Source of the DNA: Eledone cirrhosa
Taxonomy: Eukaryota
Assembly (NCBI GenBank): GCA_964016885.1
Contig: OZ024756.1
Span: 18,910,001-18,974,000, forward strand
Reading direction: 5' to 3'
DNA length: 64,000 nt
Notes under the pieces: generated by a model
The model's input: only the letters and a program-made list of their open reading frames with translations
Told to the model about the DNA's origin: nothing
The model's database searches: none
Translations under genes and position numbers: made by a program
Shown here: one piece after another, positions 796 to 63,360 of the stretch
Layout of the letters: every line of letters starts with the position of its first letter
Numbering within the stretch: position 1 is the stretch's first letter

Positions 796-857
796 GTTGT
801 ATGTGTGTGTGTATGCATATGTGTATATATGTATATATATAGAGAGAGAGAGAACGG

Positions 858-904
858 CTTCTACAGGACTAGAACTGTTTCATTTGGGAGAATTCATCAG
901 GAAA
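858..904 (-). ncRNA. Type I hammerhead ribozyme motif (family A)
   Basis: tttc CTGATGA attctcccaaat GAAA cag ttctagtc ctg TA gaag; a + strand copy truncated in stem II lies at 998-1020. Confidence 0.6.
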
Positions 905-1020
905 ACTCACATACAACACACACCACAGACATATATATATATACGTGTGTGTTGTATGTGTGTTTATATATATATATATGTGTGTGTTGTATGTGTGTTT
1001 TCCTGATGATTTCTCCCGAA

Positions 1021-1657
1021 TATATACCTCTTCCATACACACCTTCCTACAACACCCATCTCTTTGCCAAAGCTGTATCTTCCCTTCTAGACGTACTAAC
1101 TACAATAGTGAAATTGTACTGTGTGTCTTTGTCTTTACTAAACACCTTAGTGAATGTGACTGACTGACTGTTGTCGTTAGAATAAATCTCAGAACAGGTT
1201 TGTTATTGAGAAAGGAATAATAGGATCCTATATAGCTATGAACAAGAAATCAACATATACACTCATCTGTTCATACATAGAATACGTATACACATACATA
1301 ATACACGCACACATATGCATATATATATATATACACACACATACAACATATATATATATGCATATGTGTGCGTGTATTATGTATGTGTATACGTATTCTA
1401 TGTATGAACAGATGAGTGTATATGTTGATTTCTTGTTCATAGCTATATAGGATCCTATTATTCCTTTCTCAATAACAAACCTGTTCTGAGATTTATTCTA
1501 ACGACAACAGTCAGTCAGTCACATTCACTAAGGTGTTTAGTAAAGACAAAGACACACAGTACAATTTCACTATTGTAGTTAGTACGTCTAGAAGGGAAGA
1601 TACAGCTTTGGCAAAAAGATGGGTGTTGTAGGAAGGTGTGTATGGAAGAGGTATATA
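1021..1657. repeat. Long near-perfect inverted repeat (~310 bp arms)
   Basis: 1021-~1332 is the reverse complement of ~1349-1657 with about one mismatch; microsatellite spacer. Confidence 0.95.
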
Positions 1658-6840: not shown

Positions 6841-7735
6841 TAACCCCGACGGCAGAGCTCAAGCCGTTTCGACGGCTATTTCTGGACTAAATTAGAATGT
6901 TTAGCATGGTGAATAAATAGCCGAACTTTTCAAGGGGATACTTCCTTATATGGGAAGATTGTAGTTGTCAAGAGGATTGGTTAAAATGTGTTGTAAACAC
7001 AAATAAGTCTATCATGGCATTTGGTGGGAGGTAGGGGTGGCTGAACTTGCCTGTAGAACAATAGGGGAGTGATGGGAGCGGTCAAGCGTTGAAAGTGATA
7101 TGTATACATCAGCTTCTAAGGATAGTGTGTGAAGTGGGGGAGGGAGGTTATAGAATAGGTAAATCGAAAGAGAGTAGGAGACAATAAAAGATACTAGAAA
7201 TAAATAAAAAAAATATATATAATTAGATAGTGAGAAATGAATAAAGAAATCACAATGCCATCTTACAATTACAGGTTAATAAGTTGAGAATAGAAAAAAC
7301 CTATAGAAATTCCAAAACAGATACAAACCTAAAGGGGTTTTTAACACATCTGCTATAAGTAGTTAGTAAAACGTATTCGGCCAATTCTATCTTAAAATAA
7401 CAGGGGTGGGGAACTGATGGTACAAGGCCCAATGGGCTGCATCGGGGTAGGCGAAAGGGGAAAGCAGACGAGGAAGAAAATAAGGGGCGGAAGGAAGTGA
7501 TAGGATGAGACAGGGGGAAGAAGGAGACAAAGAGGAAAAGAAAAGAGATACATTTACCTATGTAAGCTGGGGTTTCCCCTAACTTATTCGGCAAGAGGGG
7601 GGTATCAGCCCTAGTCTACCCACCTGGGTCGTTATAGGGTTTGAGGGCGAGGTAAGTCCTACGCAATCTGTGTTTGCATGCGGTTACCAGTTGATCTTTC
7701 TTGTTTAGGAGTTGGTCCTTCGAAAACAGCATTTT
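6841..7735 (-). mobile_element. 3' end of a second, divergent Penelope-like element in inverted orientation
   Basis: Minus strand 7732..7616 reads MLFSKDQLLNKKDQLVTACKHRLRRTYLALKPYNDPGG*, aligning with ILYATDHILNKKSEAISACKHKLHKTFLYYSPTLYPNG* of the + strand element; followed by non-coding tail ending in an HHR-like motif at ~6843-6890 and a TA tract. Confidence 0.75.
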
Positions 7736-9660
7736 GTATTACCCGTTTAGAAAGCCGAATGATACGCTTAATTACATAAGTAAGCATTCCAACCATCCTG
7801 CCAGCATAACCAAGAACCTGGTAAGAAACGTTTCGTTGATGCTTTCCCGTCTTTCCACCAACGAGCGTATTTTCAACGACCATTCCACTTATTACAATGA
7901 AGCTCTTGCTCGAAGTGGATTTGTCGATAAGGTAGCATATACGGAGTACGAAAATAGACCTAGAAGAAATAGATCCCGTCGCATTTGTTGGTATAACCCA
8001 CCATATAATATGGAGGTGGCCACACCATTAGCTAAGATCTTTCTTTCCCTTATTACGAAGCTTTTTCCCCCTACACATAAATATAGTAAAATTTTCAATA
8101 GAAATACTATTAAAATTTCTTACTCTACGACTCCTAACCTTGCACATAACATCACAGCTTCAAATTTAGCTAAACTACCTAGCCGTAGGAACACGTGCAA
8201 CCCTGTAGTTAGTACTAACTGTAATTGTAGGAATCGGGTTGATTGCCCCCTATCCGGGAAATGCCTCTCTAGTAACATTGTCTACAAATGTAAGGTTGTA
8301 ACACCCACGTCCCGTAGGGCCTACATAGGGTTAACCGCCAATAGATTCAAGCAGCGTCTTTACATGCATACCCATTCTTTTCGTTACCCTCTAAAAAGGA
8401 ATATGACGTCACTTTCAGCTTATATCTGGAGTCTAAAAGACAACCACACCCAATATAAGTTACACTGGGAGATCCTAGCTAGGGCTAGATCGTATAACGG
8501 AAATAAAAGATCATGTGACCTCTGCGCCGCTGAGGCCCTGGAAATACTCTACGCCACAGACCACATCTTAAACAAAAAATCTGAGGCAATTTCGGCTTGT
8601 AAACATAAATTGCACAAAACTTTCCTGTATTACAGCCCCACGTTATACCCTAACGGATAGTACGATCTATACGTGGATATTTTACGTCTTGATGTGGGAG
8701 CTAAGTATATGTTTTGTTTATACCATTACTTATTTGCATAGGTAAGTATATATTACCCGTAGGTTTTGTGAAGGTACGTATACCTTCTCGTACGTATATT
8801 TGATTGTTTATGTTATGGCGTATAATTTTATATATTCTGGTACATATGGTTTGGCTTTGTGTATACGGTAGTTTTGCGTCTGTGTGAGTATGCTGGTTCG
8901 TACGTATGTAGGGTGTGTGTATATGTGTACTTCATGTTTTGGTTGATTTACGTCTCCGAACATTCGTGTATTTACATGTAGGTATGTGTGTGCGCTTGTT
9001 ATATACGTATTTATTTATTTATATACGTTTATATAATTATTTGTATACATGCATACACACACACACATATTTATATGTGCGTGGTTTTGTATACCTATGG
9101 TAAGTGTTTTGCGTATGCTTGTGTATGTACGTATTTGTTTGCGTGTATGTATTTATTTATTTCTATTAATTCCGTATTGTATTTATTTACTTTGTTCTTA
9201 ACTCTGTAGCGGAGAGTCATTCGGTCTCCTAGTTAGAATTTTAGTCTACGACTTCTGCTATACCATTTACGTGGTTTTGTCTTTGCGTGCTATTGTTCTC
9301 CACGCTCCACATATGACGTATTATCTTCGTTTTTTTCGTTCATTTCCAGAGAACGTCTCTATGAACCACCTAAAAGAACATTAGTCTACGACCTCTTTTA
9401 TACCATAAACGTGGTTCTGTCTTTGCGCGTAATTGTTTTTCACAGCTCCTATTAATGACGTATTATATTCGTTTTTTCCCGTTCTTTGCCAGCGAACGTT
9501 TCCACGAACCAAAGTATCATCTTCCTGTCTTCCTCAGGTTGCAACGTTTTTTGAAATATCCACTTCTGCGTTCACAGATTGACTTTGTTAGTTTCAGAAG
9601 ATCCCGTTAAGGGTGAAAGCAGCGATTCTTTGCTTAAACTTTAATCTGTTATTTTAATAA
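7734..9660 (+). mobile_element. 5'-truncated Penelope-like element: RT C-terminus, GIY-YIG endonuclease and 3' UTR/pLTR ending in an HHR motif
   Basis: ORF 7701..8660: YPFRKPN..YISKHSNHP (PLE RT thumb), CNCRNRVDCPLSGKC linker, NIVYKC...YIGLTANRFKQR..H, CDLC..E..ILNKK (GIY-YIG); ~140 bp tandem duplication at ~9240-9510; HHR at 9590-9640; abuts (TA)n. Confidence 0.9.
9590..9640 (+). ncRNA. Type I hammerhead motif with U4A core variant at the end of the Penelope 3' UTR
   Basis: agttt CAGAAGA t ccc gttaa ggg t GAAA gca gcgattctt tgc TT aaact: all three stems pair. Confidence 0.65.
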
Positions 9661-59645: not shown

Positions 59646-62600
59646 AATTAAGGACAAAATGATGACATACAGACACACACAAGAACCAAACTAATTAAGG
59701 ACAAGATAAAGACATACAGACACACACAAGAACCAAACTAATTAAGGACAAGATAAAGACATACAGACACACACAAGAACCAAACTAATTAAGGACAAGA
59801 TAAAGACATACAGACACACACAAGAACCAAACTAATTAAGGACAAGATAAAGACATACAGACACACACAAAAACCAAACTAATTAAGGACAAGATAAAGA
59901 CATACAGACACACACAAGAACCAAACTAATTAAGGACAAGATAAAGACATACAGACACACACAAGAACCAAACTAATTAAGGACAAGATAAAGACATACA
60001 GACACACACAAAAACCAAACTAATTAAGGACAAGATAAAGACATACAGACACACACAAGAACCAAACTAATTAAGGACAAGATAAAGACATACAGACACA
60101 CACAAGAACCAAACTAATTAAGGACAAGATAAAGACATACAGACACACACAAGAACCAAACTAATTAAGGACAAGATAAAGACATACAGACACACACAAG
60201 AACCAAACTAATTAAGGACAAGATAAAGACATACAGACACACACAAGAACCAAACTAATTCAGGACAAGATAAAGACATACAGACACACACAAAAACCAA
60301 ACTAATTAAGGACAAGATAAAGACATACAGACACACACAAGAACCAAACTAATTAAGGACAAGATAAAGACATACAGACACACACAAGAACCAAACTAAT
60401 TAAGGACAAGATAAAGACATACAGACACACACAAGAACCAAACTAATTAAGGACAAGATAAAGACATACAGACACACACAAGAACCAAACTAATTCAGGA
60501 CAAGATAAAGACATACAGACACACACAAAAACCAAACTAATTAAGGACAAGATAAAGACATACAGACACACACAAGAACCAAACTAATTAAGGACAAGAT
60601 AAAGACATACAGACACACACAAGAACCAAACTAATTAAGGACAAGATAAAGACATACAGACACACACAAGAACCAAACTAATTAAGGACAAGATAAAGAC
60701 ATACAGACACACACAAGAACCAAACTAATTCAGGACAAGATAAAGACATACAGACACACACAAAAACCAAACTAATTAAGGACAAGATAAAGACATACAG
60801 ACACACACAAGAACCAAACTAATTAAGGACAAGATAAAGACATACAGACACACACAAGAACCAAACTAATTAAGGACAAGATAAAGACATACAGACACAC
60901 ACAAGAACCAAACTAATTAAGGACAAGATAAAGACATACAGACACACACAAGAACCAAACTAATTCAGGACAAGATAAAGACATACAGACACACACAAAA
61001 ACCAAACTAATTAAGGACAAGATAAAGACATACAGACACACACAAGAACCAAACTAATTAAGGACAAGATAAAGACATACAGACACACACAAGAACCAAA
61101 CTAATTAAGGACAAGATAAAGACATACAGACACACACAAGAACCAAACTAATTAAGGACAAGATAAAGACATACAGACACACACAAGAACCAAACTAATT
61201 CAGGACAAGATAAAGACATACAGACACACACAAAAACCAAACTAATTAAGGACAAGATAAAGACATACAGACACACACAAGAACCAAACTAATTAAGGAC
61301 AAGATAAAGACATACAGACACACACAAGAACCAAACTAATTAAGGACAAGATAAAGACATACAGATACACACAAGAACCAAACTAATTAAGGACAAGATA
61401 AAGACATACAGACACACACAAGAACCAAACTAATTCAGGACAAGATAAAGACATACAGACACACACAAAAACCAAACTAATTAAGGACAAGATAAAGACA
61501 TACAGACACACACAAGAACCAAACTAATTAAGGACAAGATAAAGACATACAGACACACACAAGAACCAAACTAATTAAGGACAAGATAAAGACATACAGA
61601 CACACACAAGAACCAAACTAATTAAGGACAAGATAAAGACATACAAACACACACAAGAACCAAACTAATTCAGGACAAGATAAAGACATACAGACACACA
61701 CAAAAACCAAACTAATTAAGGACAAGATAAAGACATACAGACACACACAAGAACCAAACTAATTAAGGACAAGATAAAGACATACAGACACACACAAGAA
61801 CCAAACTAATTAAGGACAAGATAAAGACATACAGACACACACAAGAACCAAACTAATTAAGGACAAGATAAAGACATACAGACACACACAAGAACCAAAC
61901 TAATTAAGGACAAGATAAAGACATACAGACACACACAAGAACCAAACTAATTAAGGACAAGATAAAGACATACAGACACACACAAGAACCAAACTAATTC
62001 AGGACAAGATAAAGACATACAGACACACACAAAAACCAAACTAATTAAGGACAAGATAAAGACATACAGACACACACAAGAACCAAACTAATTAAGGACA
62101 AGATAAAGACATACAGACACACACAAGAACCAAACTAATTAAGGACAAGATAAAGACATACAGACACACACAAGAACCAAACTAATTAAGGACAAGATAA
62201 AGACATACAGACACACACAAGAACCAAACTAATTAAGGACAAGATAAAGACATACAGACACACACAAGAACCAAACTAATTAAGGACAAGATAAAGACAT
62301 ACAGACACACACAAAAACCAAACTAATTAAGGACAAGATAAAGACATACAGACACACACAAGAACCAAACTAATTAAGGACAAGATAAAGACATACAGAC
62401 ACACATAAGAACCAAACTAATTAAGGACAAGATAAAGACATACAGACACACACAAGAACCAAACTAATTAAGGACAAGATAAAGACATACAGACACACAC
62501 AAGAACCAAACTAATTAAGGACAAGATAAAGACATACAGACACACACAAGAACCAAACTAATTAAGGACAAGATAAAGACATACAGACACACACAAAAAC

Positions 62601-62700
62601 CAAACTAATTAAGGACAAGATAAAGACATACAGACACACACAAGAACCAAACTAATTCAGGACAAGATAAAGACATACAGACACACACAAAAACCAAACT
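59645..62700. repeat. Highly homogeneous 47 bp satellite, ~65 copies
   Basis: Unit ctaattaaggacaagataaagacatacagacacacacaagaaccaaa. Confidence 0.98.
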
Positions 62701-63089: not shown

Positions 63090-63132
<43 letters not shown>

Positions 63133-63135
63133 AAG

Positions 63136-63188
63136 GAGCTTCTACAGGACTAGTACTGTTTCATTCAGATGAAATCTTCAAGAAGCCC
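63136..63188 (-). ncRNA. Inverted hammerhead copy with C3U core change (family A)
   Basis: gggcttc TTGAAGA ... GAAA cag tactagtc ctg TA gaagctc; mirror image of 63190-63242. Confidence 0.55.
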
Positions 63189-63189
63189 T

Positions 63190-63242
63190 GAGCTTCCTGA
63201 AGATTTCATCTGAATGAAACAGTACTAGTCCTGTAGAAGCTC
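63190..63242 (+). ncRNA. Type I hammerhead ribozyme motif (family A)
   Basis: gagcttc CTGAAGA tttcatctgaat GAAA cag tactagtc ctg TA gaagctc; 7 bp stem I, palindromic ACTAGT in loop III. Confidence 0.82.
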
Positions 63243-63326
63243 CTTCTATAAAATAAAAAATTTTACTCTGCCATGTATTGAGTACCTTACTTACTGTGGT
63301 TATCCCCGACTCAACCCGGGACCTAC

Positions 63327-63360
<34 letters not shown>

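Follow-up and report, generated by a model that had tools for sequence, protein, structure and literature searches.

A hairpin of about 200 bases near the right end of a 64,000-nucleotide stretch of Eledone cirrhosa DNA (hereafter the window) carries a hammerhead ribozyme on each strand, back to back, and raises the question of whether such a unit amplifies by itself or is left behind by a longer retroelement. The first-pass annotation offered both readings, namely an independently amplifying ambisense-ribozyme element and the smallest product of fold-back integration by a Penelope-like element (PLE). We identify the unit as the 5' leader of a Hydra-type PLE of 4 kb, and we trace below how copies of that leader probably came to stand head to head. 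Two arms of 62 nt each (63127-63188 and 63190-63251) flank the single T at 63189 and pair with two mismatches (63181/63197 and 63187/63191); the arrangement is as first described, one hammerhead on each strand, one nucleotide apart, with (TA)n on both sides, and the unit ends at 63328-63330 rather than at 63325 as had been proposed. The features of the locus and of its two relatives in the window are as follows.

63092..63126, no strand: left (TA)n tract, the insertion target, with no target duplication readable
63127..63188, minus strand: inverted arm without tail, putatively the second cDNA, from the start in the A/T linker to the RNA 5' end
63189..63189, no strand: single untemplated base at the head-to-head junction; junctions vary among copies
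63190..63190, plus strand: non-parental G (C in the parent), likely a copied cap, from comparison with the parent
63191, plus strand: predicted transcription start, 29 nt behind the TATA box of the parent
63191..63241, plus strand: type I hammerhead, with a predicted cut after 63235
63242..63264, plus strand: A/T-rich linker, the zone where inverted arms begin and the putative second reverse transcriptase (RT) start
63265..63330, plus strand: tail with predicted hairpins, its fixed end the putative first RT start
63331..63357, no strand: right (TA)n tract, read from the sequence
44299..44428, minus strand: stub of a sister subfamily, twin-primed (non-overlapping) in character, with a tail and a hammerhead arm that is inverted; parent type L192
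857..1021, no strand: more distant relative, with a whole hammerhead at 857-903 (minus) and half a hammerhead at 997-1021 (plus)

Read on its own strand, the minus arm carries the C3U change already noted (U at 63181), a misread first base at 63187 and an extra G at 63188; the C3U change is private to this locus, the 29 other aligned copies having C. All 30 aligned copies are bordered by (TA)n or decayed (TA)n, with (AG)n on the left side of L019. Microsatellites are abundant in this 3.0-Gb genome and swamped a repeat search of the window. Elsewhere in the window, seven calponin repeats (PF00402, E 5e-87) lie in a host exon at 40244-41137, and a tandem repeat of about 47 bp in some six copies occupies 62400-62700, 400 bp from the unit.

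The plus-strand hammerhead consists of the core segments CUGAAGA (63197-63203), GAAA (63216-63219) and GUA (63233-63235), a stem I of 6 bp, a stem II of 3 bp closed by U-U, and a stem III of 4 bp with the palindromic loop ACTAGT (63224-63229) that had been pointed out at first reading. The core, then described as canonical, is indeed intact in its conserved positions, but the closing pair 10.1-11.1 of stem II is U-U and not G-C, as it is in 13 of the 14 commonest variants listed; similarly, the seventh pair of the reported 7-bp stem I exists at this locus but uses a G absent from the parent, in which stem I has 6 bp. Stem I compensates between subfamilies (AGCTTC/GAAGCT versus AGATTC/GAATCT), and an intact plus-strand core with three helices and covariation identifies the motif as a type I hammerhead. 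Rfam returned no hammerhead at E<=10 in 63186-63330 and none among the best 150 of 384 matches in the whole window, and we set aside its miRNA matches as hairpin artefacts; a descriptor scan of the window for the hammerhead motif returned four, the two of the unit and those at 44372 and 900. The expectation that the long hairpin would compete with ribozyme folding was confirmed by prediction, the whole unit folding at -116.7 kcal/mol versus -42.9 with the plus hammerhead forced; this cost of about 74 kcal/mol shrinks to only 3 kcal/mol in a single leader. In a read-through transcript of the unit, the hairpin would by this estimate (about 74 kcal/mol) block the predicted ribozyme.

Short head-to-head copies such as the window unit (hereafter stubs) have longer counterparts, inverted hammerhead pairs 0.7-6 kb apart that share the same tail end and inverted arm and enclose parts of one open reading frame (ORF). 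That the unit should lie directly before this ORF was predicted before we searched with the ORF start, and the search bore the prediction out: in 9 of 18 close matches (L166-L183; 16 listed), upstream sequence, TATAAATA, hammerhead, linker and tail lead into the ORF, and the remaining matches are truncated or rearranged at the leader. The parent reads TATA box, hammerhead, linker, tail and RT-endonuclease ORF, with the ATG about 45 nt beyond the tail, which in full-length parents continues into the 5' UTR and ORF; the window unit corresponds to the first 139 bases of the predicted parent transcript plus an inverted partial copy. Hammerheads around the ORF stand 4251 bp apart in L318 and 3956 bp apart in L320, and L319 holds an open frame of 814 aa with YRDD and YIG motifs (by eye), an RT with a C-terminal GIY-YIG endonuclease (EN). 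The frame also has SDKTKN (DKT replacing DKG), CNCPDKTTC (the CxCX5C linker) and, in the EN, CDLC (CxxC) and CMH (CxH), has no CCHH, and carries RWR where the Hydra-clade motif is RWK; the parent inserts in (TA)n, bears its hammerhead in the pLTR, and has a long, microsatellite-rich 3' UTR.

Because neither the parent frame of L066 nor window frame 7695-8657 matched an RT or GIY-YIG family in Pfam, the clade assignment rests on motifs read by eye. These motifs appear to fit the Hydra clade as defined in the accessible portion of its description (PMC8557442; here and below, published work is cited from the portions accessible to us), where EN+ members including Hydra-1_Obim (Craig et al., 2021) likewise have a single ORF, an RT with C-terminal GIY-YIG, DKT, CxCX5C, CxxC/CxH and no CCHH, as well as a (TA)n target and a type I hammerhead. 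The parent differs in its length of 4.0-4.3 kb, compared with generally <3 kb in the clade (a tendency in that source and not a strict criterion), and in a tail of about 60-85 nt rather than 30-40 (PMC8557442); the hammerhead of Hydra-1_Obim differs from that of the window family, for which a motif search of the supplement to PMC8557442 gave 0 matches. We rejected a Naiad PLE as the source, since the EN is C-terminal here, whereas Naiads have an N-terminal EN and no canonical hammerhead. Next to the parent, at L318 1690-4060 and L319 7077-9169, lies a further Hydra-type element that has diverged from it (about 37-55% protein identity), presumably by way of the shared (TA)n target. The window itself holds an ORF fragment of another Hydra-type PLE at 7569-8660 and 9595-9630, with 47% identity over 360 aa to the parent, and a decayed hammerhead-like motif at its 3' end with a stem II seemingly closed by U-U (by eye). 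Contigs from four runs of other organisms, which we guess to be RNA, hold a relative of the leader and ORF, with starts and strands unreadable there.

The unit is abundant and uniform. All 40 scored matches (the first being the window itself) span at least 198 of its 201 bases at 96-100% identity, its 39-nt core has 2101 exact matches genome-wide compared with 0 for a reversed control, and exact matches to the tail end number 1575. Genome-wide, about 495 fold-backs on the pattern of one subfamily have a centre within 30 nt, the pattern of the sister subfamilies gives 3749 short fold-backs, and 597 arms genome-wide run on into parental upstream sequence. From these sequences we take the unit to belong to a young family. 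Its recurrence at about 44298, with the tail inverted relative to the hammerhead, is as the first-pass annotation had it, the copy at 44299-44428 being a sister-subfamily member (86-92% identity) whose inverted hammerhead arm ends at the wall described below. The copy at 858-1020, assigned at the time to the same family, does contain a related hammerhead but is distant (83-85% identity over 47 nt), with half a hammerhead on its second side, about 100 nt between the arms and no tail match. Sister-subfamily stubs also lie nested inside the (TA)n tracts of long copies (L067 283-576, in element orientation, and L065), and in L069 and L070 tail-less arms are paired face to face 1.3-1.4 kb apart with (TA)n at each end.

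Hundreds of copies of near-equal length and 96-100% identity, with a hammerhead on each strand, are what one would see if the 200-base unit amplified itself as a non-autonomous or viroid-like ambisense-ribozyme element. Against this, the junctions differ among copies, the left end varies by about 28 nt, the unit contains no promoter, its hairpin makes the ribozyme fold less favourable by about 74 kcal/mol, and no tandem or permuted form occurs among the loci read. Moreover, the rare linker-C and stem-T variants turn up in short as well as long copies whose junctions are not the same, which is what one would see if each stub derives from a parent rather than from another stub. We consider self-amplification extremely improbable; the independent element offered in the first-pass annotation is not supported, given the variable junctions, the missing TATA box and the rare variants that also occur in long copies, and the alternative of a smallest PLE fold-back product gains support from the autonomous parent. 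A self-amplifying SINE or MITE was rejected because the junction and left end vary and long copies carry the same variants. Metazoan non-LTR retrozymes (preprint 10.64898/2026.07.22.740005) are likewise non-coding and PLE-derived with a type I hammerhead, but in the part of that source available they are head-to-tail tandems with a hammerhead in each repeat, whereas the window unit is a single head-to-head pair, and we rejected membership for the family's single head-to-head pairs, which form no head-to-tail tandem. Three same-strand hammerheads with parental upstream sequence, about 1060 bp apart (L123-L125; C1:118475479, 118476540 and 118477595), might be a head-to-tail array derived from a circle or a tandem duplication.

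What the copies share is the place where their arms stop, which we call the wall. Because top BLAST matches are biased by likeness to the query, fold-back centres were judged on position-ordered samples, with positions counted from hammerhead C3. Among 90 tail-anchored copies on C1 (consecutive tail ends, 90 of 92 listed), 37 stop at -7 to 0, 2 at -40 to -8, 19 beyond and 32 inside the unit; several stops at -57 to -79 are alignment drops at a C run and were entered solely as beyond -40. The wall lies 29 bases behind the TATA box: in the parent, TATAAATA stands 29 nt before the A at -6, which is preceded by C, and it is kept 35-39 nt before C3 across subfamilies despite a changing spacer, with the initiator matching only as CA. 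The AGCT palindrome was rejected as the sole cause of the wall, which persists in palindrome-less sister subfamilies (1 of the first 50 listed of 3749 sister fold-backs passes it) and also without an inverted arm, where 1 of 68 (TA)n-joined sites passes -8 by hand count.

Since stem I begins exactly where the wall lies in both large pattern sets, the wall could instead be an RT stall or a processing point set by that stem, with the stubs as ordinary truncations at a hot spot. There is also a second wall. In a long-spacer subfamily, with its box at -38/-39, half of the arms extending to -10 (18 of 36) end at that position following a G, whereas only 1 of 23 does so at the same CA in a short-spacer subfamily with its box at -35 (Fisher p=0.0002); microhomology with the other arm could account for the G in 11 of these 18. 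This second wall, 4 nt upstream and only where the TATA box is further away, is not expected of a stem-set stall, nor is a non-parental G in 42 of 68 sites, and we judge a stall very unlikely. Because the second wall occurs where the TATA box is more distant, the wall would seem to follow the promoter rather than the ribozyme stem.

At the wall, the junction letters vary among AGCT overlaps, single bases and short templated inserts. The first-pass annotation had expected that centres would be either fixed, marking a family, or variable, marking independent truncations; the position proves fixed and the letters are made anew each time, which fits neither alternative as framed but follows if the wall is, as it appears to be, the RNA 5' end. 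The centres are not random, nor are they inherited, and the wall is sharp. At some of them (for example C1 81059925, 177072023 and 260408686) stand short inserts templated by hammerhead sequence close by, of a kind that we take to be typical of end-joining by polymerase theta.

The base at the wall bears a further mark. At position -7 of 68 (TA)n-joined sites, we find G in 42, the parental C in 7 and target A/T in 19; in spaced junctions, G occupies -7 in 21 of 33 arms (p=3e-6), and in 9 of 15 in the sister set. This non-parental G is likely to be a copied cap. Of the 42 sites with the G, 15 also show a misread base at -6, and such misreading would presumably fit a modified first nucleotide; by the same count, plain untemplated addition with a bias toward G could explain part of the signal. 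An untemplated G at full-length 5' ends of L1 and SVA has likewise been read as a copied cap (PMC4859970). A start set by a TATA box would not be general among PLEs, since the promoter of Drosophila virilis Penelope is described as internal and TATA-less (PMC2377424).

The two arms of a stub agree where they are informative about their source. A linker variant is the same in both arms in 68 of 68 informative A/C cases (62 A/A, 6 C/C; 18 further cases were uninformative and 1 had a private change), and yet in 14 of 22 junctions with G on both arms the base at -6 differs between arms, although most of these are query-like matches; the window copy is among them, with G-A on one arm and G-G on the other. 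Decay blurs this record, as 65 of 70 arm differences are private. We read these patterns as both arms deriving from one source RNA, with the first base apparently misread independently in each. The tail-less arms begin within a zone rather than at a point, (TA)n starting 48-76 nt after C3 in 98 of 103 with a left-end range of about 28 nt, and 13 of the 103 have A runs of 9-19 where the parent has 6-7, as though the RT had slipped where it was primed. In 8 of 90 copies (9 if L211, judged by eye, is included), the inverted arm outreaches the tail arm on the 5' side, and the tail arm of such copies gives out at +46 to +81, at the linker or shortly beyond it. The copy at 44299-44428 belongs to this class.

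These observations also bear on a reading in which a cDNA that reaches the RNA 5' end folds back and self-primes its second strand, or self-priming takes place on an antisense template as proposed for rotifer Penelopes, in either of which the wall may still be the transcription start. Self-priming would explain why arms share variants (68 of 68) and would, through snap-back, also give overlaps through the AGCT palindrome, which are the commonest junction class (11 and 10 of 51); palindromes at inverted junctions were read in this way in rotifers (PMC3846280). It would not by itself lead one to expect a first base that differs between arms in 14 of 22 both-G junctions, an inverted arm longer at its 5' side than the tail arm in 8-9 of 90 copies, or long A runs in 13 of 103 tail-less arms, and the G, lying at the 5' end in the sense orientation, suits a template that is sense and capped. 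We regard self-priming as unlikely.

The template also seems to have been uncut. Fold-backs centred near the cut site (+39) number 13, one of them exactly there, compared with 495 at the wall, and tail-anchored copies stopping at +37 number 2 of 90, about background; the cleavage site was rejected as the RNA 5' end on these counts. Copying of cut RNA would give arms ending at +39, and we therefore infer that stub templates were uncut and that ribozyme-cut RNA almost never serves as template.

Taken together, we hold it probable that one capped, uncleaved RNA is copied from two internal starts and that the two cDNAs are joined head to head. Pol II would start the transcript at the first base of stem I, and either pLTR, 5' or 3', may be the source of the template RNA. 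The element's endonuclease would open a (TA)n tract, after which one DNA end would prime at the tail end and the other in the A/T linker; both cDNAs would run to the cap, of which the G would be the copy, and host end-joining would close the centre. The resulting stub, having no TATA box, would likely be a dead end, and long copies that include the promoter may come from a longer-than-unit RNA with a downstream tail, from a circle or from a template jump.

Minus-strand strong-stop DNA of LTR elements is likewise primed near the RNA 5' end and runs off at the cap. The stub differs in having neither a tRNA primer nor an LTR, and since the chromosome itself would prime, the run-off product is inserted. 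It is conceivable, and we put it forward only tentatively, that PLEs in general make strong-stop cDNA, starting near the 5' end of capped, uncleaved RNA that opens with the hammerhead's first base, and from both ends of the break, with thousands of the products fixed in the genome, so that inverted pLTRs, tails and solo hammerheads would be outcomes of one process; the hammerhead from start to cut (45 nt) could then serve as a terminal repeat for a jump to a ribozyme-cut 3' end or to a circle, like the retroviral R region.

Parts of this arrangement have precedents. An inverted 5'-truncated copy with a one-sided tail is common in PLEs (PMC8557442; PMC3846280; PMC2377424), and opposite-strand hammerhead pairs have been ascribed to truncated PLEs (Cervera and de la Pena, 2014; PMC4209133). 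Because both the inverted copies and these pairs are published, the head-to-head layout is already known from the accessible literature. The genomic evidence speaks against a viroid-like reading. The published pairs lie about 100-700 bp apart and were attributed to self-priming, possibly on antisense RNA (PMC4209133; PMC3846280), whereas those described here are mostly <25 bp apart. In the rotifer Adineta, head-to-head inverted pLTRs with a tail have palindromes at their junctions and a TATA box and initiator in the pLTR (PMC3846280); unlike the self-priming proposed there, the marks that we describe point to a sense capped template copied twice.

The closest biochemical counterpart is PAc, a Poseidon element of Anolis, which in vitro extends both DNA strands and uses unprocessed RNA (Frangieh et al., 2024; PMC11167929), its RT starting at two internal sites close to the RNA 5' end, which bracket the tail, on an A/T-rich target. 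The stubs, as read here, would match PAc in all of these respects (PMC11167929). PAc is a member of a different clade, and its hammerhead runs into the ORF start; that of the parent described here is confined to the 5' UTR. The accessible text on PAc does not analyse genomic run-off products or how they are joined. In L1 twin priming, too, the opposite DNA end primes at an internal position of the RNA and the two cDNAs are end-joined, and full-length 5' ends carry an extra G (PMC4859970; PMC11702581). In the published portions, however, L1 cDNAs overlap by only 1-10 bases, whereas here both usually reach the cap and the same 60 bases are copied twice; only stubs of the type at 44299 resemble L1 twin-priming inversions (PMC11702581). 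The accessible text of PMC8557442 describes no fixed wall or cap mark for Hydra-clade PLEs, and our search, which covered papers available without subscription, found none that reports, for PLEs, strong-stop products, twin priming, or a wall spaced from the TATA box and carrying a cap-like G.

The origin of PLE inverted repeats and tails, the RNA strand that is copied and the role of the hammerhead are treated as open questions in the accessible parts of the PLE literature (PMC8557442; PMC3846280; PMC11167929), and the stubs bear on each of them. They constitute thousands of natural products of the PLE reaction, from which the predicted start site can be mapped to the base, and they argue for a sense capped template copied twice and against antisense self-priming. 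They further indicate that insertion of ribozyme-cut RNA is rare. Back-to-back hammerheads in animal genomes need not mean viroid-like RNA, and the hairpin in this octopus genome is probably a record of PLE copying rather than a viroid-like element.
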